Assembly (NCBI GenBank): GCA_044222475.1
Contig: JBGANF010000008.1
Coordinates: forward strand, 98,688 to 117,567
Origin: Polyangiaceae bacterium
Lineage (GTDB): Bacteria; Myxococcota_A; Polyangia; Polyangiales; Polyangiaceae
Reading direction: 5' to 3'
Length of the DNA: 18,880 nucleotides
Shown: positions 1 to 16,315 of the stretch, in pieces
Numbering within the stretch: position 1 is the first letter of the stretch
Layout: the number at the start of each line of letters is the position of its first letter
Notes under the pieces: generated by a model
Databases searched by the model: none
What the model was told of the DNA's origin: nothing
The model's input: only the letters and a program-made list of their open reading frames with translations
Position numbers and translations under genes: made by a program

Positions 1-1319
1 GCAAGGCGGTGATGATCAAGCACGAGTGTCGCCGCTGCCACGAGATCGACGACCTGCCGGCGGCGTCGCGGCCCAACGGGTGCACGAGCTGCCACTTGTG
101 GCTCAAGGGCCTCAAGCCCGAGGACAAGCAGTACAAGGACATCGTCTCGAAGTACGGCGAGCCGATCGTCCAGCGGTACCAGCGGAACATCGTTCACCTG
201 GAGCGCGTGCCCGAGCTCACCGGCATCGGCAAGCGGGTGCGTGCAGACTACATCGAAAAATTCCTCGCCGAGCCGTACGACCAGCGGCCGACGCTCGAGG
301 AGAGCATGTTCCGCCACAAGCTCACCGATGCGGAGATCCGCTCGGTCGCGCGCTACTTCGCCGCGATGGTCGACGCGCCGGATCCGTGGGCCGCCGGCTA
401 CGTGGCGCCCGTCGTCGCCAAGCCCGACGCGGCGCGCATCGAAGAAGGTCGAAAGCTCTTCCTCGGAAAGGGCTGCGTCGCCTGCCACACCTACGGCAAC
501 GTCGAGACGGGCATGACTCGCGAGACGCTCGAAGCCGCGCGCGGAGCGAACGCGCTCGCGCCGAACCTCCGGTTCGTGAAGGATCGGACCCGGCTCGACG
601 CCATCGTCACCTGGATCATGGCGCCCCAGTCCCTCGCGCCGAAGACGACGATGCCGGGCAGCGGCGCGACCGTCGGCGAGGCCGAGGCGATTCGCGACTT
701 CCTCCTCTACGGCGACCCGCAGCTCAAGCCCGCGCCTGCCACGTACGAGATCAAGCCGCCGGCGATTCTTCCGCGTCCGGTGCCCTACGCCGAGATGAAG
801 GAGAAGGTGCTCGGCAAGGTCTGCGTCCACTGCCACATGAACGACTACGAGAAGGACACCGGACCGGGCAATCACGGCGGCTTCGGGTATGCCGGCATCG
901 GGCTCGCGGTGCGCACGTACGAGACGATGGTCGCCGGCGCCGTCGGCCCGGACGGAAAGCGCTACTCGATTTTCCAGCCGCGTCCCGGGGAGACGATGCC
1001 CCACGTGCTGGTCGTCATGCTCCAGCGTCGCATCGAGGAGCAGCGTGATCACGTCCCCGCGTTCGCCGACTACGAGCGGCCGTCGTACCCGAAGGGGATG
1101 CTCGGCATGCCGATCGGTCTACCGAGCATGGACGACGAGGCGATGTCGATCCTCGCGACGTGGATCGCGCAAGGCTGCAAAGGGCCGACGGCCATCACCG
1201 GAAAGACCGGCGTCAACGACGGGTACCTCGTCCCCGACGGGCCGCTCAAGAAGAACGAAGGCTGCGAGCTCCGCGGTCCAGAGAAGCCGCGCCCGGCCTG
1301 GGCGTTCGATCAGAAATGA
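1..1319 (+). CDS. c-type cytochrome with four CxxCH haem-binding motifs, 5'-partial (frame continues from position 3; ORF track starts at GTG 9 / ATG 12)
   Basis: Four CxxCH motifs are present in the translation: CRRCH, CTSCH, CVACH and CVHCH. GC3 is high in this frame. No signal peptide precedes the first haem motif, and the frame is open to the window edge, so the true N-terminus probably lies upstream. The stop TGA at 1317-1319 overlaps the next ATG. Confidence 0.75.
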   Translation, partial: KAVMIKHECRRCHEIDDLPAASRPNGCTSCHLWLKGLKPEDKQYKDIVSKYGEPIVQRYQRNIVHLERVPELTGIGKRVRADYIEKFLAEPYDQRPTLEESMFRHKLTDAEIRSVARYFAAMVDAPDPWAAGYVAPVVAKPDAARIEEGRKLFLGKGCVACHTYGNVETGMTRETLEAARGANALAPNLRFVKDRTRLDAIVTWIMAPQSLAPKTTMPGSGATVGEAEAIRDFLLYGDPQLKPAPATYEIKPPAILPRPVPYAEMKEKVLGKVCVHCHMNDYEKDTGPGNHGGFGYAGIGLAVRTYETMVAGAVGPDGKRYSIFQPRPGETMPHVLVVMLQRRIEEQRDHVPAFADYERPSYPKGMLGMPIGLPSMDDEAMSILATWIAQGCKGPTAITGKTGVNDGYLVPDGPLKKNEGCELRGPEKPRPAWAFDQK

Positions 1320-2980
1320 CCAAGCGCCTCGCGACCCCGATCGAGAACATCGCCTACCGCTACGACGTCGTCGTCGTCGGCTCGGGGTACGGCGCGGCCA
1401 TCACCGCGGCGCGGCTCGCGCAGGCCGGGCTCAAGGTTGCCGTGCTCGAGCGCGGTCGCGAGTGGATCCCCGGCGAGTTCCCCGCCGACGAGGCCTCGGT
1501 CGCGAAGGCGGTGCGCACGCCGCTCACTCCGCTCGGGCTCTTCGACGCGAACGTGCAGCCCTCGAACGACCTCGACGTCGTCGTCGGCTGCGGCCTCGGC
1601 GGCACGTCGCTCATCAACGCGGGCATCTCGCTCCGGCCCGAAGCCGAGGTCTTCGCCCAGCCGGAGTGGCCGAAGGCCATCCGCGACGCGTGGAGCGACG
1701 GCTCCCTCGCCCACTACTACGATCGCGCCGAGGAGATGCTCGGCGCGTACTCCGACGACTCGCTGGGCGAGATGACGAAGGTGCGCCTACATCGCGATCT
1801 CGTCGAAGCGCGCGGTGTGAAGCACGGCCTGATGAAGCTCAACGTGACGCGCCACGCGCACGAGCGTCACGGCATCGCGCTCGCGCCGTGCACCCACTGC
1901 GGTGACTGCGTCGCGGGCTGCAACGTCGGCGCGAAGAACACCCTCGCCACGAACTACCTGCCGCTCGCGAAGCACCACGGCGCGAAGCTCTTCACCGGCG
2001 TCGAGGTCCGCACGGTGTTGCCCGCCGATCCGGGTTGGGAGATCTCGTTCCGCCTCGCCGAGAGCGACGTCGCCGGCACCGTGCGCGCGGCCACCGTGGT
2101 GCTCGGCGCAGGATCGATGGGCTCGACCGAGATCCTGCTCCGCTCCAAGCTCGGCGGTCTTCCGCTCGGAGCGATGGTCGGCGCGCGTTTCTCCGGCAAC
2201 GCCGACATCATGGCGCTCAGCTACGCCGGAAAGACCCGCACCGACGTGCTCGGCTACGGCGCCACCGTGAAGGGCGTCCGAGAGGGTTGGCCCGTCGGCA
2301 CCACCATCAGCTCCTACGGCGATTTCCGCCGCGGGCCGGCGAAGAACTTCCAAGAGCGGTTCCTCCTCCTCCAAGGCGCCATCCCGACCGCGCTCGCGAC
2401 GCTCGTGTCGCGCGTGTTCGGCGCATGGGGTTTGGTCTCCGCCGACGCGCGCCAGCGCGCGTTGATCCAGAAGGACCTCACCTCGCTGACCGGGCCCGAC
2501 CCCGACGGCGCGTTGAACCACTCGATGCTGTTCCTTGCCTGCGGTCACGACTCCGGGACCGGGCGTCTCGTCCTCGACGACGCGGACGATCGCGTGCACG
2601 TCGAATGGAAGGGCGTCGGCGACGAGCACTGCTTCGCCGCGATCACGGACGAGATGGTCGCGCTCACCGAAGCGCACGGCGGGCTCTTCGCGCCCAACCC
2701 GCGGAGCACGCTCCTCGGTGGTGATCGTCAGATGACGGTGCACCCGCTCGGCGGTCTGCCAATGGGCGACGACGTGGACCACGGCGCCGTGAACCATCGC
2801 GGGCGCGTGTTCGACACCGAGGGTGGCTTCCACCTCGGGCTCTACGTGGTCGACGGATCGATCGTGCCGCGTTCGCTAGGCGTGACGCCGCTGCTCACGA
2901 TCTCGGCGCTCGCCGAGCGCGCGGCCGAGTCGATCGTTCGTCACGTGACGAAGAAGGCGCCCGGGACGACCCGGACCTGA
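1316..2980 (+). CDS. GMC-family FAD-dependent oxidoreductase, cholesterol-oxidase-like
   Basis: The ATG at 1316 overlaps the upstream stop (ATGA). The N-terminus is a Rossmann motif, 'YDVVVVGSGYGAAITAARLAQAGLKVAVLERG'. A downstream 'VVGCGLGGTSLINAGISL' segment resembles the class I cholesterol oxidase/GMC pattern. The protein is 554 aa with no N-terminal signal or Tat motif. The family call is from memory of the motifs, not a search. Confidence 0.85.
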   Translation: MTKRLATPIENIAYRYDVVVVGSGYGAAITAARLAQAGLKVAVLERGREWIPGEFPADEASVAKAVRTPLTPLGLFDANVQPSNDLDVVVGCGLGGTSLINAGISLRPEAEVFAQPEWPKAIRDAWSDGSLAHYYDRAEEMLGAYSDDSLGEMTKVRLHRDLVEARGVKHGLMKLNVTRHAHERHGIALAPCTHCGDCVAGCNVGAKNTLATNYLPLAKHHGAKLFTGVEVRTVLPADPGWEISFRLAESDVAGTVRAATVVLGAGSMGSTEILLRSKLGGLPLGAMVGARFSGNADIMALSYAGKTRTDVLGYGATVKGVREGWPVGTTISSYGDFRRGPAKNFQERFLLLQGAIPTALATLVSRVFGAWGLVSADARQRALIQKDLTSLTGPDPDGALNHSMLFLACGHDSGTGRLVLDDADDRVHVEWKGVGDEHCFAAITDEMVALTEAHGGLFAPNPRSTLLGGDRQMTVHPLGGLPMGDDVDHGAVNHRGRVFDTEGGFHLGLYVVDGSIVPRSLGVTPLLTISALAERAAESIVRHVTKKAPGTTRT

Positions 2981-2983
2981 TCT

Positions 2984-3976
2984 TCACGGGGCCAGCGGGC
3001 CGATGTAGCGCTTCGCGGCCACGAGGTTGTCGTACCACTTGTGGGTCGTGCTCTGCGGGTTGCTCCCCGCGTGGAGCCCGATGTTGAAGCGGTCGATCTT
3101 CAGCGTGTCGATGTCGCGGAAGCGAAGGTTGGGGAAGTCCGCGATGAGCTGGCCATCGAGCCACAGCGTGATCCGCCCGTCGCGCTGACCCACGGTGTTC
3201 GCCTTGAGCAGCACCTCGTAGCAGTACCAACGATCGAGATCGACGGTGACCTCGGGGCGCGGCACGAACGTCGGCCCGAAGTTGTTCGGGATGCTCGTGT
3301 TCGGCTGCACGAGCCCCGACGGGAAGAAGTGGTCGCCGTAGTTGCTCCGCTGCTCCGGGTGGTAGACGTACACGTTGAGCATCCCGGGCGACTTGTCGGT
3401 CGTGGCGCCGCGCCAGCTCTCGAACTCGATGAGGAACTTGTTCGTGCCGTTGGCCGGTACGCCCGGCGTGGCGTTGTTGCCTTGGAAGTAGTGCGCCGAG
3501 ATGCCGCCGCCGTTGTGGCTCGAGCCGGTGATGTCGAAGTTCTTGTCGAACTTCGAGTAGAAGCGCAGGTAGAGCTGGTCGAGCTCGGTCTTGAGGATCT
3601 TCTGCACCGCGTTCGAGAGCTCGGTGTTCCCCTGCGGCTCGGTGAACTCGAGCGCTTGCTTGCCGGCCTTCACGTTGGCGGGATCGGTGACGATCTTCGT
3701 CTGCGCTTGCTGGAAGTAGTTGTCCCACTTCTTCGTGAGGTCCGTCGCCGTGGCGTAGCTCTCGAAGTCGTCGGCGAAGATCACGTCGGGATCGCTCTCG
3801 ATCCCTTTGTCGCCGGGGTACTTCGACGCGATGCCGCCGCCGCCGCCGTCGGGTCCGGGCCCCGTGTCGGGCACCGAGGTCACGTCGGTTCCGGAGTCCG
3901 GCGCGGGCGTGGTCGACGAGCCGTCATCCGAGCAGCCCGCGAGCAGCGCGACACACAGCATGGCAAAGCGACGCAT
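2984..3976 (-). CDS. Lipoprotein of unknown function, 330 aa, possibly a secreted carbohydrate-binding or hydrolase-like fold
   Basis: An internal ATG at 3976 yields 'MRRFAMLCVALLAGCSDDGSS', a signal peptide with an LAGC lipobox. A GGGAGG Shine-Dalgarno sits 8 nt upstream at 3985-3990 on the minus strand. A Gly/Asp/Pro-rich linker follows, then a mixed beta-rich domain. The longer ORF start at 4213 is rejected because it has no signal peptide and the SD position favours 3976. Confidence 0.8.
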   Translation of the reverse strand: MRRFAMLCVALLAGCSDDGSSTTPAPDSGTDVTSVPDTGPGPDGGGGGIASKYPGDKGIESDPDVIFADDFESYATATDLTKKWDNYFQQAQTKIVTDPANVKAGKQALEFTEPQGNTELSNAVQKILKTELDQLYLRFYSKFDKNFDITGSSHNGGGISAHYFQGNNATPGVPANGTNKFLIEFESWRGATTDKSPGMLNVYVYHPEQRSNYGDHFFPSGLVQPNTSIPNNFGPTFVPRPEVTVDLDRWYCYEVLLKANTVGQRDGRITLWLDGQLIADFPNLRFRDIDTLKIDRFNIGLHAGSNPQSTTHKWYDNLVAAKRYIGPLAP

Positions 3977-4013: not shown

Positions 4014-5045
4014 ATGGCTCCTGTCGGGGCATGCACCGAACGCGAGCTCTTCGACGACGTCGACCTGTGCACCCCTCGCGGTCGACTCGCGCCGGCGGCC
4101 GTCGGCTGGGCGCGAAGGCCGCTGCACCGGTGCGCGCTTCCGGGCACCTGGGGCCGAAACAAGCGGTGGGACTTCTGGGGCGTCATCGGTCCGGGTTTCG
4201 CCCTCAGCCTCACCTACGCCGACGTGGACTACCTCGGCCTCGTCGACGTGTGGTTCCACGACTTCTCCACCGCGCGCACGTTCGCGCGCTCGAGGATGGT
4301 GCCCCTCGCGCGCGGGATGTCGCTCCCGGATCGGCCCTTCGGAGCGCCGATTCGGTTCGCCCGACGCGGCCTCGAGCTGTCGTTCGTCGAGGTCGACGGC
4401 GGAACCCGTCTCGTCGCGATGTACCAAGATGGTACGAACGAGTTCGAGGCGGACGTCGTCGTCGAGCGGCCCGTCGGTCACGAGTCGCTCAGCGTGGTCA
4501 TCCCGTGGAGCAAGCGGCGCTTCCAGTGCACGACGAAGGACGTCGCCCGACCCGCGCGGGGTGCCGTGCGGTGGAACGGCGAGCGCTGGTCGCTCGCGCC
4601 GGCCTCGTCGTGGGGCTGCCTCGACTTCGGTCGCGGCAAGTGGCCCTGGCGCACGAAGTGGAACTGGGGCGCGGCGGCGGCGAACGTCGCCGGCCATCGC
4701 GTCGGGCTCCAGCTCGGCGGGAAGTGGACCGTCGGCACCGGCATGACGGAGAACGCCCTCTCGGTCGACGGGCGGCTGTCGAAGATCTCCGAGGAGCTCG
4801 AGTGGACCTACGACCCGCGCGACTGGCTCCGCCCGTGGACGATCCGCGCGCCGCGCACGAAGCGCGTCGCTCTTCGGTTCACCCCGACCTACGACAAGGT
4901 CTCGCGGATCGAAGCCGGCGTCGTCAGCGCGAAGGTGGACCAGTGCTTCGGCACCTACGAGGGGACGATCGTGCCGGATGACGGGCACGAAATCCGGATT
5001 GCGGGCATGTTCGGCTGGGCCGAAGAAGCGACGTGGCGCTGGTAG
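4014..5045 (+). CDS. Trp-rich hypothetical protein, DUF2804-like, 343 aa
   Basis: High GC3 begins at ATG 4014, with GAGG 12 nt upstream. The upstream in-frame segment 3960-4013 has atypical codons (tta, cca) and overlaps the divergent lipoprotein start. Motifs such as 'KRWDFWGVIGPGFALSLTYADVDYLGLVDVWFHD' and 'GKWPWRTKWNWGAAAAN' recall the DUF2804 family. That is from memory and unverified. Confidence 0.65.
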   Translation: MAPVGACTERELFDDVDLCTPRGRLAPAAVGWARRPLHRCALPGTWGRNKRWDFWGVIGPGFALSLTYADVDYLGLVDVWFHDFSTARTFARSRMVPLARGMSLPDRPFGAPIRFARRGLELSFVEVDGGTRLVAMYQDGTNEFEADVVVERPVGHESLSVVIPWSKRRFQCTTKDVARPARGAVRWNGERWSLAPASSWGCLDFGRGKWPWRTKWNWGAAAANVAGHRVGLQLGGKWTVGTGMTENALSVDGRLSKISEELEWTYDPRDWLRPWTIRAPRTKRVALRFTPTYDKVSRIEAGVVSAKVDQCFGTYEGTIVPDDGHEIRIAGMFGWAEEATWRW

Positions 5046-5109: not shown

Positions 5110-5529
5110 ATGAACACCGCAGAGCTGGAAGCGCTGATCAGGGAGCGGAAGGCCGTGGAGCTCGACCTCCGCCATCAGGTGAATGAACGGCTGGAACGCC
5201 GACGAGCCGAGATCGACGACGCCGTGAGGTCGGCGATGAACCACTCGCGCCGTCACGTCGTCGCGACGTTCATGTACCTCTACCCGACAGGCGGTGCGAT
5301 CGACGAGTTCGAGAAGCACCTCCAGCAGAGCGGATGGCATCGCACCCAACTCCCCGCCGATGGTTGGGCCCGCCCGATGGAGCGCGGGACGACTTTTCCC
5401 GACGCGGTGAAGCTCGCTCACGACGAGATTGACCGAGCCCGTACACACGCGATGGCGGCGGTGAGGGTCAGTTGCAAGTTCGTCGTGAACGGCGTCCGCG
5501 TCGGGAGCTTCAAGGTCCTGTCGCTCTGA
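5110..5529 (+). CDS. Small hypothetical protein, 139 aa, with a predicted coiled-coil N-terminus
   Basis: The ATG at 5110 follows a low-GC3 non-coding stretch. The frame shows moderate GC3 bias, noticeably lower than neighbours, with several rare codons (gca, gaa, agg, aat, aca, ggt, act, ttt, att, agt). The N-terminus 'ELEALIRERKAVELDLRHQVNERLERRRAEIDD' is heptad-like. No family was recognised. Confidence 0.5.
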   Translation: MNTAELEALIRERKAVELDLRHQVNERLERRRAEIDDAVRSAMNHSRRHVVATFMYLYPTGGAIDEFEKHLQQSGWHRTQLPADGWARPMERGTTFPDAVKLAHDEIDRARTHAMAAVRVSCKFVVNGVRVGSFKVLSL

Positions 5530-5541
5530 CGCCCGGCTCGC

Positions 5542-5997
5542 TCATCGGGCGAGCGCGTACTGCTGCGGCGCCGGCGGCAGCGAGGCGCGCGCCTGCTGGA
5601 ACGTCTGCACCATGCCCTCGGCGGCGCCGAAGTTGTCCTTCATCCAGAAGCGACCGAGGACGACGGTCTTGTCGAACCCGCGAGCCTGCGCCTTCACCGA
5701 GAGGTTCTTGTTGAAGATGCCCCAGCCGAGCTCCGTGCGATCGACCTCGTGCCAGCCGAGCGCGTCGACTTGCTTCGCCGCGTAGCCGCTGAGCAGGCCG
5801 CCGTACTGGATGAAGAGGAGGCGCTGGTTCGTCGCGGCGACGAGGTAGTTGCGCCAGAGGAAGCTCCCGAGACGGGAGAAGAGGCGCGAGTACCACGGCT
5901 TCTCGACGCCGCGGGCGCGGTAGAGCATGCGCTCGTTCGGGCCGAGCTGCGCTTGAATGAGGGACATCGCGTGCTGTTCGCTGAAAGTAAGTGCCAT
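5542..5997 (-). CDS. Bacterial PH-domain-like protein (bPH/YcxB-like), 151 aa
   Basis: The ATG at 5997 has an AGGAGAG SD about 7 nt upstream. GC3 is high. The 'ERMLYRARG...WRNYLVAATNQRLLFIQYGGLL...LGWHEV' pattern looks like bacterial pleckstrin-homology proteins ('TNQRLLF', strand-loop alternation). This is recalled, not searched. Confidence 0.7.
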   Translation of the reverse strand: MALTFSEQHAMSLIQAQLGPNERMLYRARGVEKPWYSRLFSRLGSFLWRNYLVAATNQRLLFIQYGGLLSGYAAKQVDALGWHEVDRTELGWGIFNKNLSVKAQARGFDKTVVLGRFWMKDNFGAAEGMVQTFQQARASLPPAPQQYALAR

Positions 5998-6120: not shown

Positions 6121-7071
6121 ATGGACGTGTTGCTCCAGGATCTCCCGGTGGCCGACGCGAAGAAGCTCCTCGCGAGCGGCGCGCCGGTATTTCTCCCGGT
6201 GAACCCGGTCGAGTACCACGGCCCACACCTCTCGCTGCACAACGACCGGCTGATCTCCACGGGCCTCGCACGCGACGTGCACGCGCGTCTTCCCGGCGGT
6301 CACCCGTTCGTCCTCGCGGCCGATCTCGAGGTCGGTGTCGACCCGACGCCCGGTCCGGGGACGCGCTTCGTTCCGTTTCCCATCGTGCGCGACGTCGTCC
6401 TCGAGGCATGCCGCGCGCTGCACGCGATGGGAGCACGAACCGTCATCGCGATGACGTGGCACGGGGCACCGCTTCATTGCATCGCGATCGAGCCCGGCCT
6501 CGAGTGGTTGCGCTCCCGCGGTGTCGTCGCGCTGAACCCGTTCTGCCTCGCCATGCGCGAGCAGTGTCGCCTCGAAGGCGCACGCTTCGCGCGCGCGTTC
6601 GATCACGTCGCCGACCTCGAGCTCCGCGCGAAGATGATCGAGTCGCTTCGCTACGACTTCCACGCCGGCTTCTTCGAGACGTCGATGACGCTCCACTACG
6701 CGCCCCACACCGTGTCGAAGATTCACCTCGACCTACCGCCGTGCCCGCCGCTCGTCGCCGACAAGAAGACGCTCGGGCTCGCGCGCACCGCGGCGGCGGT
6801 CGGCCGGATCGAGCTCGCCGACGAGCTCGCGATGGTCGCGCACGGGCTCGCGTGGCACGCGCTGAAGCCGTTCCCCGGATACACCGGGCACCCGCACCTC
6901 GCGCGCGCGGCGAGCGGCGCGATCTTCGCGAAGGAGGTCGCCGACGGCTACGCAGCGCTCATCGGCGACGTCGTCGCCGGGCGCGCCGACGCACCCGCGC
7001 CGCCGATGCAGTGGATCGCGAAGCTCACCGCGAACGGGCGCTTCGCGCCGAAGCTCCCGAGCGCGAAGTAG
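6121..7071 (+). CDS. Creatininase-family (creatinine amidohydrolase-like) metal-dependent hydrolase
   Basis: 'LPVNPVEYHGPHLSLHND' matches the creatininase-family E-x-HG-P-HLP-x-x-D active-site signature. GC3 is high. The protein is 316 aa. Confidence 0.85.
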   Translation: MDVLLQDLPVADAKKLLASGAPVFLPVNPVEYHGPHLSLHNDRLISTGLARDVHARLPGGHPFVLAADLEVGVDPTPGPGTRFVPFPIVRDVVLEACRALHAMGARTVIAMTWHGAPLHCIAIEPGLEWLRSRGVVALNPFCLAMREQCRLEGARFARAFDHVADLELRAKMIESLRYDFHAGFFETSMTLHYAPHTVSKIHLDLPPCPPLVADKKTLGLARTAAAVGRIELADELAMVAHGLAWHALKPFPGYTGHPHLARAASGAIFAKEVADGYAALIGDVVAGRADAPAPPMQWIAKLTANGRFAPKLPSAK

Positions 7072-8695: not shown

Positions 8696-10648
8696 TCACT
8701 CCAGCCAGCCACCGGCGCTCATCAGCGCGACGGCGACACCGAGCAAGCTCTCCCCAGCGATGATCCCGCTGGCGACCGCGACGACGTACTTCTCCGCGTG
8801 CTCCTTCTTCGCGCGCTCCCAGAAGTAGGCGATGACCGCCCCGAGGAACATCGAGAAGGAGTTGAACCAAGGGATGACGAGGGACAGGCCGATGCCCATC
8901 GCCGACGGGATCCACTTCTTGTGCTTCGGGAACGCGAGCTCCAGGAGCGGAAGGATGATCCCGATCACGCCACCGACGACCATGCCCCAACGCGCCCACG
9001 GGTGGAGCGACTCGACGCCGTTGGCGAGAACTTCGGCGACGCCCTTCCAGACCTGCGCCGACGGAGCGGGGAACCGATCCGTCCCGAGCGCGGCCGGCGT
9101 CGGCACCAGCTTGTAGAACGCCGGGACGACGACGAGCGTACCGACGATCGTCCCCGACAGCTGAGCGAGGAACTGCTTCCGCGGGTTCGCGCCGAGGAGG
9201 TAGCCGCTCTTGAGATCGGTCAAGAGGTCGGCCGAGCTGCCGGCGGCGCCCGCGGTGATGCTCGCGGTCATCAAGTTGGTGACGACGTTCGCGGGAGCGA
9301 GGATTCCGTACGTGAGCTGCGTGATCTTCCCCATCGCGCCGACCGGTGTCGTGTCGGTCTCGCCGGTGGCGCGGCACGCGACGATCGAGAGGACGAACGA
9401 CAAGAGCACTGCCAGCACTCCGAGCCACGGCCTTATGCCGAAGAAGACGTAGCCGATGACCACGAGGCCGATGGTCGCGAAGACCATCCCGCCGCCGAAC
9501 CACGAGACAGGGACCTCGATCTTGTCCATCTCCTCGCGGACCTTCTCGGCGTCGCTGGTCGCCGCCGGCTTGCCGCCCTTCAGCAGCGCTCCGATGCCGC
9601 TGAAGGCGCGCAGCACGGTGCGCCACTGGAGCGCGAACGTCAGGAGTCCGGACGTGACCATCAGCGCCGCGCCCGGCCACAAGCTGAACGATACGATCGC
9701 GCGGTATCCGAGGGCCGCCGCGCCATGGTCGTCGAGGTGGGTCTTGATGGCGCCAGCGTCGAGCGCGCGCGGCGCGATGACGAAATAGTTGATGGTCGCA
9801 CCGATCAACATGCTGACCGTCGTGCGCAGGCCCATGAGCATGCCGGCCGCGATCATGATGAGCGAGCCTTCGAGGCCGACGGTCCAGTTCTTGAGCGCGA
9901 GGCCGCGAAGCTTGCCGGGGAAGGGGACGAGGCTTGGGATGACCGAGAGCTTCGTGAAGAATCCCAAGATGGGATGACCGGCGGCCGCGTGCGCGTCACG
10001 CAGCCACGCCACGACGGCGCCGGCGCCCATCGTGATGAAGAGCCACCGCGCCTTCTCGGCCGCCTCGGTGCCCTTCCCGTAGAGCGACTTGAGCGTCTCC
10101 GCGGCTGCGATGCCGGACGGGAACTTGAGCTGCTCCACGTTGATCATCTGGCGCTTCATCGGGATCGCCATGACGGTGCCGAGCACCGCCATGAAGAACG
10201 TCCACCCCATGAGCGTCGGCCACGGTAGGTGGTGGCCTTGGACCAGCAGGAGCGCGCAGATCGCCGACGTGGTCACGCCGCCGGTCGAGTAGCCGGCGGA
10301 AGATGCCGTCGACTGCATCGCGTTGTTCTCCAGCATCGTGAGGTTGGTGCCGAAGATGCTCGGAGCGATGCGCGAGAGCGTCGAGTACAGCGCGAACGAG
10401 AGGATGCACGCGGTGATCGCGACGCCGAGCCCCCACCCGGTCTTGAGACCGACGTACAGGTTCGACAGCGCCATGAGGGCGCCGAGCACGCTGCCCACGA
10501 TGAACGACCGGACGGTGAACTGCGGGACGTCGCCGCGGTAGACGGTCTGGAACCACTCGACTTCGGGGTCGCCGTGGGGTTTCTCCTTCGCCGCCGACTC
10601 GCGGTACGCGGCTTCCTTCTCGGCTTCGGCTTCCGTCGGGATGGACAT
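8696..10648 (-). CDS. OPT-family oligopeptide transporter, 650 aa
   Basis: The N-terminus 'YRGDVPQFTVRSFIVGSVLGALMALSNLYVGLKTGWGLGVAITACILSFA' and many hydrophobic segments match OPT-superfamily transporters, at a typical length of about 650 aa. The start is ATG 10648. Confidence 0.9.
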   Translation of the reverse strand: MSIPTEAEAEKEAAYRESAAKEKPHGDPEVEWFQTVYRGDVPQFTVRSFIVGSVLGALMALSNLYVGLKTGWGLGVAITACILSFALYSTLSRIAPSIFGTNLTMLENNAMQSTASSAGYSTGGVTTSAICALLLVQGHHLPWPTLMGWTFFMAVLGTVMAIPMKRQMINVEQLKFPSGIAAAETLKSLYGKGTEAAEKARWLFITMGAGAVVAWLRDAHAAAGHPILGFFTKLSVIPSLVPFPGKLRGLALKNWTVGLEGSLIMIAAGMLMGLRTTVSMLIGATINYFVIAPRALDAGAIKTHLDDHGAAALGYRAIVSFSLWPGAALMVTSGLLTFALQWRTVLRAFSGIGALLKGGKPAATSDAEKVREEMDKIEVPVSWFGGGMVFATIGLVVIGYVFFGIRPWLGVLAVLLSFVLSIVACRATGETDTTPVGAMGKITQLTYGILAPANVVTNLMTASITAGAAGSSADLLTDLKSGYLLGANPRKQFLAQLSGTIVGTLVVVPAFYKLVPTPAALGTDRFPAPSAQVWKGVAEVLANGVESLHPWARWGMVVGGVIGIILPLLELAFPKHKKWIPSAMGIGLSLVIPWFNSFSMFLGAVIAYFWERAKKEHAEKYVVAVASGIIAGESLLGVAVALMSAGGWLE

Positions 10649-10692: not shown

Positions 10693-13600
10693 TCACTGCG
10701 GACGGTCGTTGACGCACCGCACGAGGTGGCGACCGCCGTTGCCCATGATTCCGAGCTCGGCGGTGGGCGCGTCGGACTTCGGCAACTTGGCGGCGAATGC
10801 ATCGTCGCCGAGCGTCGTCACGAACGCTCCCCGCTCGAGACACGCCCCACCGCGCGTGACGTGCAGCCGCGCGAGGAACCCGCTCGTCGACGGGTGGAAC
10901 GTGATGGGCGCGTCGTCCTTCTTCTTCGCGTCGAACTTCACGCTGATCGTCGATGCCGGCCACCGCTCGTCGATGACCCAAGCGCTGTCGTGACCGGTGC
11001 AGATGCCGACGTTCTTTCCTCCGAGGTCGACGCTGCCGAGCGCCTCCGGCTCGCCGATGCTGCCGCTGTCGATGTCGACCGGGAGCACCCACTGGGTCGC
11101 CGCTGCGCCGACGGTCTGCGGCTGTCCGTCGATCACGACACCGACGGTGCGACCGCCCTCGCGCCGCGCCAACCGAGCTTGCGCCGGGCGCCCGTCCTGC
11201 GCCGCGCGCGGAATGCGAGCAAGCTCTCGCGCGAGCCCGCCCTCGACCTCGTAGAGGATCAGCGTCGAGTAGTCGCCCGGGCTCGTCGCCGCGACGTACC
11301 AGTGACCCTGCATCCGCACCGCGGCGTCGATCTCGCCGATGACCGCGCCGTCCAGCCGATGGACCTCGAACGGCGGTCGGTCGGCCTCGAGCTCGAACGC
11401 GACGGTGTCCATGGGGGACGCGCCGGACGCGTTGCGCCGAGCGAGGAGGAGCATGTGCGTCGTGTCGTCACCGGCGACGACCGACCACTGGCTCACCGGT
11501 CGGGTGATCTGACCCAGGGTGACGAAGTTCGTGTTCTCGCCCAACACCGACGGCGTGGCCATCGACTGCGTCGCGTGCACGACGTTCGACGACTCGAACG
11601 GACCGGTGAAGCGGAACAACGTGCGTCCCTTCGTCTCCCACTCGATGCCCTTCGGACCCCACGCGTAGACGCGCAGGAGGGAGCCGATGAGCACCGTCAT
11701 CTGGTTCCCGCGCTCGGCCACGGCGCCGACGGGGGTGCTCCAGCCGAGCTCGTCGGTGCCGAGCTTCGGTGCGGCGGTGCCGAAGAACGACTCCCAACGT
11801 TGCGTCACGATCGCCGGGCCGCGCCCGTAGTAGTAACCGGGGTAGGTCGTCACGGCGGGCGAGGGGAGCTCGGCCACGTCTTTCGCCTTCGTCACCACCT
11901 CGCACCGAAGCGCGAGCGTCGGCGCGACGGGTCGACCGGGGATGGGCACGGAGCTCGGGATCGCGACGGCGGAGTCTTTGGCGGCCGTTCCCCAACCCAC
12001 GCGCGCCCAACCAGCGAGCGTGCAACCGACCGGGCTGCACGCTCGGGCGAGCGGCGCGCCGCGGTGGCGCACGTCGAGCGGATCCGGCAGGTCGATCACC
12101 TCCCACGACTTTCCGCCGTCGGTCGTCTCGTAGCCGCGGCGCGCACCCGTGAACGCGAGCGCGTAGCGTCCGGCCACCATCGTCGTCCCGAGATCGCGGA
12201 TGTACTTTCCGTACGTCGCGTGGCCGTCGGTGCGGAGCTCGATTCCCAAATAGGTACCGCCGAGCTCGACCCAGCCGGTGAGCGCGCCTTGCGCTCGCTC
12301 CTCGAAGCCGTCGAGCCACGTGCCGGATCGAAGCGTCTGCTCGACGAGGTCGGACACGTCTTCGCCCTCTTCGCCGGCCGCCGTGCGGAGCGTGAACACG
12401 ATCGGAAACGTGGTCGCCTTGCCCTTGTCGAGCACGGTGATGCGCGCACCGGCGAGGTCGCCTTGGGGCGGAGACACGATGACCGTGCGCCCGTCCGCGA
12501 GAGGAACGATGCGTTCCGCCCCGACGTCACCCTTCACGTCGAGCTCGGTGAAGGTCTCGTTGGCGGCGCCGATGCAATACACCTGGTGACCGCGCGTGCC
12601 GCCGTCGCCCGTGCCATCGGGATCGCACGTGCCTTTTACGACGAGGTTGCCGTTCGCGGGGCTCCCGATCTGGCGCGGCTTCGAGAAGTGGCGGATGAGC
12701 CGCATCCGCGAGGCGTTCGCGTCCCACGCGTAGATTTCGGTCGCGCCTCGCGGTTGGCCGCACACGAACCCGAACGCGGCCATGTCCTTCGGCCTCGGCA
12801 GCGGCACCGCGTGGCACGCCGACGGTCGCAGCGGATACGCGTTGGGGACCTCTTCGACGATGACGCCGTCGCGGAGGCGCACGCGCGAGAGCGTGCCGTC
12901 GCGTGCGACGAGAGCCGTGCCGTCGGTGAGCGGCCAACCGTCTTCGACTGCGGCGACGATCGGGCGCTTGCCGAGGACGCGACCACCGTCGTTCTGCTCT
13001 TCCTCGACGTCCTCTTCTTTGGTGGGGTCGCCGATGCGAGTGACGCTCCCGTCCGCTTGCAGCGCGAAGTAGGCGTTCTGCCTGGTGGCGTCGATGCCGG
13101 AGATCACGAGGGCGTCGCCGACGAGGCTCACGTCGCGCGCCTGCGCCTGGAGCGCGAGCGGCTTCCACGTGCTGCCCGCGTCGAGCGTGACGACCGCGCC
13201 GCGAAGGTCGGTGATCGCGACGGCGCGCCAACCGTCGGCGGCGGCGTACGAGCCGACGAACGGTGAGGGAGGCCACGGACCGAGGTCGAGCGGAGCGCCG
13301 GACTTCGGCTCGAAGGCGAGGTGGGTCATCGACGACGTGCGCACGTACGCACGGTCGAGCCCGATGAAGACTCGCGTGATGCCGACGGGCGACGTGTAGA
13401 TCGGGCGGAGGGGACCGAGCCACTCGTCGGCGCGCCAGACCACCGAGCCCACGACGAAGAGGAAACCTCCGCCCATGCGCGGCGGGACGCTCACCGTCTG
13501 CGACGGCGGCTGACTGAACACTTGAGAAGCGGCGAGGACGCCTCCTCCCGGAAGGTTGAGGATGCGGACGCCGGCGGTCATCGTCCGCAGGCCTCGCCCG

Positions 13601-13842
13601 GCCTCGAACCCGAAGCGATGGGCAGCGTCGTACTCGACGGGGACCACGTGAGGTTCGGACGGCGGTTTGTCGAGCGGTTTGGCGGGGGCGGCGAGCGCGA
13701 GGGTGCTCTGATCCGCCGGCGAGGCCGCGTGGGGCGCGCACGCCGCGGCCGCGCCGAGTGCGACGAGCACTGCGAACGAGGCGAACGAGGGCGGACGACC
13801 AGGCGACGTCATCTTCAAGGAGACAGCCTCTCGCGACGCCAT
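10693..13842 (-). CDS. Large secreted protein, 1049 aa, with two BNR/Asp-box-like motifs; function unknown
   Basis: ATG 13842 has a GAAGGAAGG SD 6 nt upstream (13849-13857). The N-terminus has a signal peptide, '[22 protein letters not shown]'. Two SxDxGxTW-like motifs are present, '[11 protein letters not shown]' and '[11 protein letters not shown]'. GC3 is high across the 3.1 kb. The start overlaps the pdxH 3' end by 28 nt. Confidence 0.85.
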
Positions 13843-14468
13843 GTTCCGCCTTCCTTCAGGTAGCGGAGACGGTCGTGAAGGCGATTCGGTCTACCCTGCC
13901 AGAACTCGATACTTGCAGGATGCACGCGATACCCGCCCCAGTGCGGCGGGACCGGCACTTCGCGCCCCGCGTACTCGGCTTCGAGCTCGGCCAGGCGCGC
14001 CTCGAGGACGTCACGCCCGGCGACGACGGCGCTCTGCTCCGACGCCCACGCGCCGAGCTGGGAGCCCCGCGGCCGGGTCCGAAAATACGCTTCGGTCTCC
14101 TCCCGGGTCACTTTGTCGACGGTTCCTCGGATCCGCACCTGCCGCTCGAGCGGGAGCCACGCGAAGCACAGCGATGCGACCGGGTGGCGCGCGAGATCCT
14201 TCGCCTTTCGGCTTCCGTAGTTGGTGAAGAACACGAAGCCCCGCTCGTCGAACTCCTTGAGGAGCACGGCTCGCGCGTCGGGCGCGCCGTCGCCGTCGAC
14301 CGTGGCGAGGATCATCGCGTTCGGTTCCGGTACTGCGGCGGCGCGCGCCTCTTCGAACCAGCGGCCGAATTGCGTGATCGGATCGGGGTCGGCGTCGGAG
14401 TCGGCGAGGCCGGCGCGAGTGTAGGTCTCGCGGAGGTCGGCCAGCGAAGGAGGCGGCATCGCGCCCAT
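13815..14468 (-). CDS. pdxH: Pyridoxamine/pyridoxine 5'-phosphate oxidase
   Basis: The C-terminal '[31 protein letters not shown]' matches the PdxH signature (E. coli: IEFWQGGEHRLHDRF...RLAP). The protein is 217 aa. The start is ATG 14468 or 14459. Confidence 0.9.
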
Positions 14469-14531
14469 GATAGGCGATTTCGCGTCGCTCGCCTGCCTCG
14501 CCGCTCCCTGCTACCGTGCACGCCGGTGAGC

Positions 14532-15371
14532 ATGGACGAAGCCCTCGCCCGGGCACGTTTTCTCGAGCTGGTTCGGCGCGAGATGGAGGCGACCGAGGTC
14601 ACCGTCGTCCCGGCGGGGCCGTCGGTCGCCGACCCCGGCGTTCTCACGTCGGCGTTCGGCAAAGACGAGATGATCGTCGTTCGCTTCGACGCCGCTCCGG
14701 ACGACCGAGAGGCGAAGGGTCGCCGGCTCGAGATGCTGTCGATCGCCTTCCAGACCGCCCGCGAGGGCGAGGCGCCGAAGAAGCGCATCTCGGCGCGCTC
14801 CCTCCGCGACGAGCTTCGGGCGCTGGCCGCGCGGGCGAACGCGCTCGACGCCCTCGTGATCGATGCTCACTCGCCCGTGGTGTGGGGGGCCGTCCTCGGG
14901 GTTCGGGCCAAGCCGGGCGCCCAGGTGATCCCGCTGTCGGCCAAGGGGCGCGAGCGCGTGGAGCTCGTTCAGGAGTCTCACCGCGATCTGATCGCCGCGC
15001 TCGGAGTGAACGACGACGACACCGAAGACGACGGCCACATCTCTCAGCCACCGCCCGACACGAGCTCTCCTCTCTCCGAGAAAGCCGTCGAGGCGGTGCG
15101 CGCGCTCCCGATCCTCGCGCAGCTGCACCGCGGGGCCCACCTCGCCCACGCCGAGCGAAGCGAGGGGCTCGGCTGGATCGCGCGGAGCTTCGCCGCCATC
15201 TACGTTCTCATCCTCGTGTTCGACAAAGCGTTCGACGAGATTCGCGCGGAGCGCGCGCTTCGCGACGGGCTGCCCATCGTCGAGCGACTCGTCCTCGCGC
15301 TTCCGCCGCTCGATCCCGAGCCGGCGCCGAAGGCCGGTGTGATCTCTCTACGCATGCGGAGGCGCCGATGA
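14532..15371 (+). CDS. Hypothetical protein, 279 aa, translationally coupled to the M23 peptidase gene
   Basis: ATG 14532 has GGTGAG 4 nt upstream. The upstream part of the ORF-track frame is antisense to pdxH and is rejected. The stop TGA at 15369-15371 overlaps the next ATG at 15368. No signal peptide or family was recognised. Confidence 0.65.
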   Translation: MDEALARARFLELVRREMEATEVTVVPAGPSVADPGVLTSAFGKDEMIVVRFDAAPDDREAKGRRLEMLSIAFQTAREGEAPKKRISARSLRDELRALAARANALDALVIDAHSPVVWGAVLGVRAKPGAQVIPLSAKGRERVELVQESHRDLIAALGVNDDDTEDDGHISQPPPDTSSPLSEKAVEAVRALPILAQLHRGAHLAHAERSEGLGWIARSFAAIYVLILVFDKAFDEIRAERALRDGLPIVERLVLALPPLDPEPAPKAGVISLRMRRRR

Positions 15372-16315
15372 AGCGGTTCTCGATCGTTCTGGTCAGCGTG
15401 CTCCTAGCCGGCTGCGGTGACGCCGTGGATTCGATCGACGTCGACGGCGCAGCGCCGCCCGACGGAGCCTCCGACGTCAGCCAAGGCACGGACGCGACGG
15501 CCAAGCCCGACGCCACCGACGCCAGCGCGCCCGACGCGCCGTCGCTGCCGATCACCTGCACGGGGAAGGCTCCCGGCGCGTACTGCGGCGGCGACCAGGT
15601 CACCAACGGCGATCCTTCGACGCTGTACGAGTGCCCCGGCGCGGGACAAGCGCCGACCAAGGCGACGCCGTGCGTCGCCGGTTGCGTGGTCGAGCCACCG
15701 GGCACCGCGGATCATTGTAAAGCGCAACCATCCCAGAACGGATACCGGCTGCCCTGGTCCAAGAACGTCACCATGAAGCTGACGCAGGACTGCAACGACT
15801 CGTGCTGCTCCGACCACGTCGGCAACGACAAGTACGCGTGGGACTTCGCGAACGGCGGCGCCTTCACCGTGCTCGCCGCGCGCGGCGGAACGATCACCCA
15901 CCTCAAGATCAACAGCACCACCGGCTGCGGCACCAGCGGGTGCGTGAACGACGCGAACGTCATCGTGATCGATCACGGGGACGGCACCGAGTCGACGTAC
16001 CTCCACCTCGCGGGAAACAGCCTCGCGGCCGGCATCACGTGCGGTGCGACCGTCACGCAAGGTCAGGCGCTCGCGACGGCGGGTACCACCGGGTGGTCCA
16101 CCGGGATTCACCTGCACTACCAAGTGGAGAAGGTGCACGCCAACGTCGCCAAGTGCGAGTGCGGCACGAACGGCAACACGTGCGCGGCGAACACGGTGCC
16201 GTGGGGCAGCTTCTGGCCGACGGTCACCTATCCGACGGTGGCGATCGACTTCGACGAGTGGCAGTCGTCGCAGTGCGCCAACCGCCGCATCACGATGCCG
16301 CAGTCGCTCAACTGA
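15368..16315 (+). CDS. M23-family (LytM-like) metallopeptidase lipoprotein
   Basis: 'MKRFSIVLVSVLLAGCGD' carries a lipobox. The M23 zinc-ligand motifs HxxxD ('DHVGNDKYAWDF') and HxH ('GIHLHYQV') are present. A Cys-rich N-terminal linker or module precedes the catalytic domain. Confidence 0.85.
   Translation: MKRFSIVLVSVLLAGCGDAVDSIDVDGAAPPDGASDVSQGTDATAKPDATDASAPDAPSLPITCTGKAPGAYCGGDQVTNGDPSTLYECPGAGQAPTKATPCVAGCVVEPPGTADHCKAQPSQNGYRLPWSKNVTMKLTQDCNDSCCSDHVGNDKYAWDFANGGAFTVLAARGGTITHLKINSTTGCGTSGCVNDANVIVIDHGDGTESTYLHLAGNSLAAGITCGATVTQGQALATAGTTGWSTGIHLHYQVEKVHANVAKCECGTNGNTCAANTVPWGSFWPTVTYPTVAIDFDEWQSSQCANRRITMPQSLN

Follow-up and report, generated by a model that had tools for sequence, protein, structure and literature searches.

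Three kinds of described enzyme come closest to the gene pair considered here: the flavoprotein-cytochrome c dehydrogenases represented by fructose dehydrogenase (FDH) and by glucose dehydrogenase dependent on flavin adenine dinucleotide (FAD-GDH), the acetol dehydrogenase (AceDH) of Methylacidiphilum fumariolicum SolV, and the class I cholesterol oxidases. In FAD-GDH, Cys212, Cys218 and Cys222 are the ligands of a 3Fe-4S cluster (PMC6719666). In AceDH, the motif CDQCGFCFQGC (C187/190/193/197) binds a [4Fe-4S] core at 10.9 A from the FAD, and this core passes electrons to a c-type cytochrome; the enzyme is periplasmic, its FAD is covalent, and it requires a beta subunit with a twin-arginine translocation (Tat) signal, which contributes a Met as ligand of an additional Cu ([Cu-4Fe-4S]) (bioRxiv 10.64898/2026.06.11.731722). 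We analyzed a stretch of 18,880 nt (68% G+C, hereafter the window) from a Polyangiaceae bacterium (GCA_044222475.1, contig JBGANF010000008.1, positions 98,688-117,567, forward strand), which opens with the genes of a tetrahaem c-type cytochrome and of a flavoprotein of the GMC family. An initial annotation of this DNA had read the pair as part of a three-subunit dehydrogenase like that encoded by fdhSCL, with a small Tat-signal subunit encoded just upstream.

Motifs of the CxxCxxCxxxC type, one of which is present in the flavoprotein of the window, were found described in the literature only for the heterotrimeric sugar dehydrogenases and for AceDH, and the literature on mycobacterial ChoD yielded nothing on iron-sulfur (Fe-S) clusters. 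We report below that this motif is conserved in a large subfamily of GMC proteins, and we discuss what it suggests for the role of the gene pair.

A Ferredoxin-Like Motif in the GMC Flavoprotein

The four Cys of the motif (Table 1) were invariant in all 39 aligned GMC homologues (41-81% identity). Among representatives of 50%-identity clusters, 1412 matched at E<=1e-30, and the motif was looked for in the best 150, all of which have it. The subfamily is defined here by an E-value <= 1e-85 to the query together with the presence of CxxCxxCxxxC and HPLGG, and the window protein falls within it as a typical short member without signal peptide. True cholesterol oxidases have no Cys at the motif position in the alignment with PDB sequences. 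When a profile of 50 columns around the motif was compared with the PDB, the top matches were 2[4Fe-4S] ferredoxins (CxxCGxCxxxCPVGA; E 6.5e-5). A regional profile of the GMC protein matched the FAD-GDH alpha subunit 6a2u_B (profile 26-122, chain 211-303) and the FDH large subunit. It sets C192, C198 and C202 on Cys212, Cys218 and Cys222 of 6a2u_B, a correspondence that rests on the match coordinates and on the shared 0/+6/+10 spacing, 6a2u not being among the five motif-profile alignments listed. The spacing of all four Cys (CTHCGDCVAGC) is identical to that of the AceDH motif. Because the motif matches the cluster sites of FAD-GDH, ferredoxins and AceDH, electron transfer from the FAD to an Fe-S cluster and then to an external acceptor is favored over the reduction of O2. 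Judging from its sequence, the flavoprotein is probably an FAD/Fe-S dehydrogenase with a putative cluster and not an oxidase.

The overall relationships of the protein were congruent with its assignment to the GMC family (Pfam GMC_oxred_N, 1.4e-17; GMC_oxred_C, 4e-12). In a phmmer search of the PDB, the top match was the Streptomyces cholesterol oxidase (2e-28). The structure model had a predicted local distance difference test (pLDDT) score of 91.8, and Foldseek aligned it with cholesterol oxidase, the FDH large subunit and the FAD-GDH alpha subunit with template modeling (TM) scores of 0.70 (22-23% identity), 0.69 and 0.68, respectively (E-values of 1e-26 for 8jej_A and 7e-25 for 6a2u_B; TM range for FDH/FAD-GDH, 0.66-0.70). 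The search of the PDB with the whole GMC sequence did not reach FAD-GDH or FDH, which only the profile of the motif region and the fold search recovered.

The top NCBIfam model was also a cholesterol oxidase, ChoxAB (NF058674), with 168.4 bits against a cut-off of 850. In the HMMER alignment, the catalytic His447 of cholesterol oxidase corresponds to His476, the isomerization base Glu361 to Leu400, and Asn485 to Thr524. The segment GGTSLINAG aligned with GGGSLVNGG of ChoA, where the FAD is non-covalent. Since the score is below the family cut-off and both Glu361 and Asn485 are replaced, the window protein is, on its sequence, not a bona fide cholesterol oxidase. The resemblance to cholesterol oxidase seen in the initial annotation thus extends to the active-site His but not to the Asn. 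Within alignment A2, a subgroup of ~785 amino acids (P0182, P0185, P0202, P0203, P0223, P0231, and P0239) keeps Asn at the Asn485 position, which is Thr in the window clade and in the majority of the shorter homologues; the members of this subgroup carry a conserved C-terminal extension of ~230 residues with no Pfam match.

The 150 representatives also differed in their termini. About 22 of them (~15%) have N-terminal twin-arginine signals (e.g., NRRDFV, then a hydrophobic stretch), including homologues from Bdellovibrionota and Kofleriaceae at 42-50% identity, and the GMC scaffold thus appears to be exportable with its cofactors. The window protein, its relatives at 75-81% identity and the whole clade at ~60% are devoid of any N-terminal extension. 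More than one-third of the representatives exceed 900 amino acids (P0264, P0270, P0288, P0305, and ~50 more), and those that we checked consist of a GMC domain with the Fe-S motif fused to alpha/beta-hydrolase domains. One such fusion has an N-terminal C2 domain as well, which suggests a eukaryotic, membrane-targeted form. The fusions with alpha/beta-hydrolase and C2 domains hint at lipid-like substrates.

The Cytochrome Gene and Its Overlap With the GMC Gene

The reading frame of the cytochrome (bases 3-1319) is open at the edge of the window, where it encodes a fragment of 438 residues. To recover the upstream DNA, we looked up the exact sequence of the GMC protein, which gave six loci (23 contigs read), five of them reaching beyond the first base of the window. 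One of the five, L001, is a 22.5-kb contig of a metagenome-assembled genome from NCBI and contains the complete gene (L001:8487-10004), encoding 505 amino acids. The N-terminus, MRRVNLPRSALAFAIALAAIAAAC-GKTSS, corresponds to a signal of the lipoprotein type with a low-complexity linker behind it, and the 67 residues located outside the window hold no further haem motif. This signal is the only hydrophobic segment of the protein; the C-terminal membrane anchor envisaged in the initial annotation was looked for and not found. The cytochrome is thus an exported, full-length haem lipoprotein and not a fragment, and the upstream sequence of L001 and of the four other contigs excludes a reading frame beginning at positions 9-12 without any signal. 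The window and L001 copies differ by a single residue, Pro in the window (PPAILPRPVPY, 770-772) vs. Gln in L001 (PPAILQRPVPY), which is a strain-level variation among metagenomic contigs whose GMC proteins are identical.

We recovered more than 200 cytochrome homologues of ~500 amino acids, almost all from Polyangia/Myxococcota, plus one Terasakiella sequence. None of the 12 Cys and His residues of the four CxxCH motifs varied in either of two alignments, with 27 and 40 homologues, so that these motifs can be considered genuine haem-binding sites and not chance occurrences. The lipobox Cys, four Met residues and the C459/C488 pair were invariant as well. The Pfam Cytochrom_C match (1.9e-10) covers residues 146-235 of the fragment. 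Neither sequence nor structure comparison (model pLDDT 84) revealed a PDB relative spanning the whole cytochrome.

The stop codon of the cytochrome gene and the start codon of the GMC gene overlap by 4 nt in each of the four lineages with the pair, as ATGA in the window and GTGA in L007, and according to the called gene coordinates in L087 and L098. The coupling of the two genes read from this overlap in the initial annotation, as well as the four haem motifs, was thus confirmed by translation and by its conservation. Four-base overlaps are the most frequent overlaps between same-strand genes in bacteria; the overlap therefore indicates co-transcription or coupling and not a physical complex. 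Scanning the operon for promoters and terminators yielded no signal above chance.

The N-terminus of the GMC protein, MTKRLATPIENIAYRYDVVVVGSGYG, leads directly into the FAD-binding beta-strand. The absence of a Sec or Tat signal, already remarked in the initial annotation, was borne out: the protein has no twin arginine and no hydrophobic window (Kyte-Doolittle >=1.6 over 19 amino acids). We also considered an in-frame upstream GTG (position 1160) as a start that would add a Tat signal, and rejected it because the resulting extension is Arg-rich and has no hydrophobic core.

Search for a Tat Partner

The gene located 19 nt upstream of the cytochrome gene in L001, where a small Tat subunit had been anticipated, encodes a protein of 405 amino acids without Pfam domain. 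Its 16 known homologues all have lipoprotein signals for the Sec pathway and signal peptidase II (Sec/SPII; e.g., MRFALPMVVLLLAAC-SAT and LLAAC-S), and none has the RR pair. This family-wide presence of Sec/SPII signals without twin arginine led us to reject the protein as a large hitchhiker, a Sec substrate being unable to carry a folded flavoprotein. A divergent Ser/Thr kinase is encoded beyond this gene on L001.

We found no small open reading frame (ORF) of the Tat type within ~8.5 kb upstream on L001 or in the window. The only match in a scan of both for Tat-like N-termini was a transmembrane segment of the kinase, and the small neighboring ORFs of L001 and the window did not match the Pfam families of hitchhiker small subunits. 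The candidates rejected as Tat subunits, having neither a Tat motif nor a Pfam match for such a subunit, were the ORFs at 5110-5529 and 5542-5997 of the window and at 742-1296, 3373-3597, 4141-4743, and 4754-5221 of L001.

Homologues of the 405-residue lipoprotein at 37-39% identity (L099:5001-6206) are encoded directly upstream of genes for an MFS/TLC-HEAT protein of 956 amino acids and a cyclic nucleotide (cNMP)-binding protein of 306 amino acids, which are of the same type as the partner of the cytochrome family described below. These homologues also adjoin genes for FA_hydroxylase, an MFE-2-like adh_short-MaoC-SCP2 protein of 1000 amino acids, and thiolase.

Distribution of the Gene Pair and Synteny

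Using search patterns taken from the conserved block that begins at the fourth haem motif, we scanned one genome per species and obtained 80 loci with cytochrome orthologues at 31-87% identity. By tblastn, L007 (87% identity) alone among them had a GMC gene within 6 kb of the cytochrome gene, and it was likewise the only one with the 405-residue protein gene. The adjacency was seen in only four close lineages (five loci), among them L087 and L098, whose GMC proteins are 81% and 75% identical to that of the window, with the cytochrome gene upstream in both cases. There was no GMC gene beside the cytochrome orthologue at 74% identity (L096), and no CxxCH protein gene beside the GMC homologues at ~60% (L089, L090, and L092) or beside the Tat-bearing ones at 44-50% (L093-L095). 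As no cytochrome was found next to them, the Tat-bearing homologues do not reveal a family-wide cytochrome partner. A conserved flavoprotein partner was absent from every version of the cytochrome family that we examined. The nearest GMC relatives outside the clade (~60% identity) are signal-less and without haem partner, a placement that the initial annotation had named as speaking against its own reading.

Neighboring genes were clustered from gene calls filtered by G+C content at third codon positions (GC3). In seven relatives (L096, L008-L011, L014, and L062; cytochrome ~60-73% identical), a convergent OPT transporter gene, whose product is 73-84% identical to that of the window, lies 17 nt to 1.7 kb beyond the cytochrome gene, and next to it comes the orthologue of a gene for a 1049-residue protein. 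In the window, the OPT and 1049-residue protein genes are located 7.4 kb downstream of the cytochrome gene, from which the GMC gene and six unrelated genes separate them; none of these six adjoins the cytochrome gene in the relatives at 60-73% identity. Since the cytochrome-OPT-1049 framework is contiguous in the relatives and split in the window, the GMC gene appears to be part of a clade-specific insertion.

In the remoter cytochrome loci (43-60% identity, 33 loci), the downstream neighbor encodes a membrane protein of ~1046 amino acids (L019:7607-10717 and 32 loci among L020-L065). Nearly always on the strand of the cytochrome gene and separated from it by a median of 82 nt, this gene is the sole neighbor of the cytochrome family to be widely conserved; its product has an N-terminal multi-pass hydrophobic region, followed by HEAT repeats and by a cNMP-binding domain at the C-terminus. 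In relatives without the 405-residue protein gene, a gene resembling those of vault proteins immediately precedes that of the cytochrome. In L096 (2952-4961, 669 amino acids), the only locus on which Pfam was run, this bacterial vault-like protein matched the Major Vault Protein shoulder (1.7e-29) and Vault_3 repeats, and L008 (3816-5933) has a homologous ORF of ~680 amino acids.

Table 1. Features of the window, with positions counted from its first base.
Feature	Position	Strand	Basis or remark
Tetrahaem c-type cytochrome lipoprotein gene, 3' 1.3 kb	1..1319	+	Translation; frame from base 3; residues 67-505
Haem motif 1, CRRCH	27..41	+	Translation; invariant in alignments A1, A5
Haem motif 2, CTSCH	81..95	+	Translation; invariant in alignments A1, A5
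Haem motif 3, CVACH	474..488	+	In the sole segment recognized as a class I cytochrome c domain; invariant
Haem motif 4, CVHCH	822..836	+	Opens the most conserved block, CVHCHMNDYEKDxGPGNxGGFGY
ATGA start/stop overlap, cytochrome/GMC genes	1316..1319	+	TGA 1317-1319 over ATG 1316
GMC-family flavoprotein gene, 554 aa, cholesterol-oxidase-like, without signal peptide	1316..2980	+	Pfam, NCBIfam, PDB phmmer
FAD-binding Rossmann motif DVVVVGSGYGA, residues 17-27	1364..1396	+	G22, S23, G24, Y25, G26 invariant
C192-T-H-C195-G-D-C198-V-A-G-C202, ferredoxin-like CxxCxxCxxxC, putative Fe-S site	1889..1921	+	Conservation, profiles
His476 (HPLGG), equivalent of cholesterol oxidase catalytic His447	2741..2743	+	HMMER alignment; invariant
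Thr524 at the cholesterol oxidase Asn485 position (GVTPLL vs. GVNPFV)	2885..2887	+	HMMER alignment, column conservation
PL14-like	2984-3976	-	Pfam
DUF2804	4014-5045	+	Pfam
139-aa ORF	5110-5529	+	
bPH-like, 151 aa	5542-5997	-	Pfam
Creatininase-family	6121-7071	+	Pfam
SBBP beta-propeller lipoprotein, 546 aa	7072-8712	-	Pfam
OPT transporter, conserved synteny partner of the cytochrome gene	8696-10648	-	Pfam OPT 2.7e-97
1049-aa secreted protein, conserved partner of OPT and cytochrome	10693-13842	-	Weak BNR/Asp-box match
Pyridoxamine-5'-phosphate oxidase, housekeeping, unrelated	13815-14468	-	
M23 peptidase-domain protein, housekeeping, unrelated	14516-16315	+	
AlkZ-like DNA glycosylase, housekeeping, unrelated	16819-17898	+	

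Discussion

We consider it probable that the locus encodes a cytoplasmic FAD/Fe-S dehydrogenase and a periplasmic cytochrome that are co-transcribed without forming a complex of the FDH type. Three tightly packed, co-oriented genes of this uncultured Polyangiaceae, encoding the 405-residue Sec lipoprotein, the 505-residue tetrahaem cytochrome c and the 554-residue GMC protein, would form a probable operon. An alcohol, probably lipid-like, would be oxidized at the FAD, with His476 as the base, and the electrons would pass from the FAD to a surface Fe-S cluster and then to an external acceptor other than O2. An export signal is missing from the GMC protein and from its closest relatives, and the neighboring DNA encodes no Tat partner; the most likely site of the enzyme is therefore the cytoplasm or the inner face of the membrane, with the cytochrome in the periplasm, and direct electron transfer between the two would not be expected. 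A recent, clade-restricted insertion would have placed the GMC gene behind that of the cytochrome, the two sharing only their transcription.

Several observations weigh against this explanation. The start/stop overlap is kept in each of the four lineages with the pair, and the same clade gained genes on both flanks of the cytochrome gene, the 405-residue protein gene upstream and the GMC gene downstream; both observations could reflect selection for co-expression. The Tat-bearing representatives imply that the scaffold can function in the periplasm, with a c-type cytochrome as the obvious acceptor there, and a cluster of this type can reduce cytochrome c in AceDH (bioRxiv 10.64898/2026.06.11.731722). 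Furthermore, our data are at the contig level and a Tat partner may be encoded elsewhere in the genome. We nevertheless regard as very unlikely the export of the GMC protein, by such a partner or by an unrecognized route, followed by direct donation of electrons to the tetrahaem lipoprotein. If true, this would make the locus a recent two-gene dehydrogenase-cytochrome module, present in one Polyangiaceae clade and combining a cholesterol-oxidase-like scaffold with a cytochrome family without solved relative.

Among the alternatives to co-transcription alone, the two proteins could be linked functionally without contact, the cytoplasmic GMC protein feeding the quinone pool or another carrier and the periplasmic cytochrome and lipoprotein acting further along the same response. 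The co-transcription conserved within the clade and the opposite predicted compartments are both consistent with this scheme, but we found no conserved partner, membrane subunit or regulator that the two have in common, and the cytochrome family is elsewhere paired either with the OPT and 1049-residue proteins or with the HEAT/cNMP-binding membrane protein; we thus consider it unlikely.

A periplasmic or membrane-bound dehydrogenase of the FDH/FAD-GDH type, in which the GMC protein would be exported by Tat on a partner encoded elsewhere, seems to us quite improbable, even though four lineages keep the ATGA/GTGA coupling, the catalytic subunits of FDH/GDH have a homologous Fe-S motif, Tat-exported GMC paralogues exist, and AceDH reduces cytochrome c via such a cluster. 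The lack of a Tat subunit within the region searched, a cytochrome that is neither trihaem nor anchored, and an adjacency restricted to one narrow clade all argue against the fdhSCL-like complex. The initial annotation is thus partly supported: the Fe-S motif favors a dehydrogenase over an oxidase, as it had suggested, whereas the proposal of a three-subunit complex fails.

Finally, a conventional cytoplasmic cholesterol (3-beta-hydroxysteroid) oxidase reducing O2, with four Cys that are structural or bind zinc, is hardly plausible, since the top sequence and structure matches to class I cholesterol oxidases, the conserved catalytic His and the label "cholesterol oxidase" given to homologues in some sources are opposed by the score far below the NCBIfam cut-off, the loss of the isomerase base Glu361 (Leu) and of the flavin-tuning Asn485 (Thr), and a Cys motif that is invariant in this GMC family, absent from true cholesterol oxidases, and matched to 4Fe-4S ferredoxin motifs and to the FAD-GDH cluster ligands.

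Returning to the co-transcribed dehydrogenase that we favor, the locus itself is a fairly ordinary lineage-specific operon junction, and the lasting point is the invariant, ferredoxin-like CxxCxxCxxxC across a large uncharacterized GMC subfamily. If the motif binds an Fe-S cluster, like its counterparts in FAD-GDH, FDH and AceDH, the members of this family labeled "cholesterol oxidase" or "GMC oxidoreductase" are mis-annotated and would be single-subunit FAD/Fe-S dehydrogenases with electron partners other than O2. This would have a bearing on genome annotation, on bacterial lipid and sterol oxidation, and on efforts to find direct-electron-transfer enzymes for biosensors. The tetrahaem lipoprotein family is also structurally uncharacterized.

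Comparison With Known Systems

The locus shares with FdhSCL of Gluconobacter (7W2J, 8JEJ) and the gamma-alpha-beta FAD-GDH of Burkholderia cepacia (6A2U) a catalytic subunit of the GMC fold with FAD and without signal peptide, a Cys cluster predicted from sequence in the same loop of this subunit, and an adjoining c-type cytochrome gene. It differs from them in several respects. Whereas FDH and FAD-GDH have a small Tat hitchhiker (~170-250 amino acids), there is no such gene beside the window GMC gene. Their cytochrome subunit, related to subunit II of ADH, is trihaem and C-terminally anchored, whereas the window cytochrome is a tetrahaem lipoprotein of unrelated architecture, resembling the FDH/ADH cytochrome subunits only at the level of the generic class I domain. 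The GMC protein has a fourth Cys (CxxCxxCxxxC) and is only 17-19% identical to their catalytic subunits. The genes of FDH and FAD-GDH are kept together across taxa, in contrast to the gene order of the window, confined to one clade.

AceDH (GmcA/GmcB) has, like the window protein, a GMC alpha subunit with the CxxCGxCxxGC spacing, whereas neither its Tat-signal beta partner nor its other features are evident at the window locus. In sequence and fold, the closest solved relatives of the flavoprotein are the class I cholesterol oxidases (ChoA of Streptomyces sp. SA-COO, 1B4V; Brevibacterium, 1COY), with which it shares the equivalent of His447. It differs from ChoA by its score below the family cut-off, the absence of Glu361, Asn485 and a secretion signal, and the presence of the Cys motif. 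The cytochrome resembles the class I monohaem cytochromes c in a segment of ~90 residues around its third haem (Pfam Cytochrom_C, many class I structures). As for the flavoprotein, it is related to the known Fe-S-containing GMC dehydrogenases, as a single-subunit protein that combines a cholesterol-oxidase-like scaffold with a four-Cys motif.

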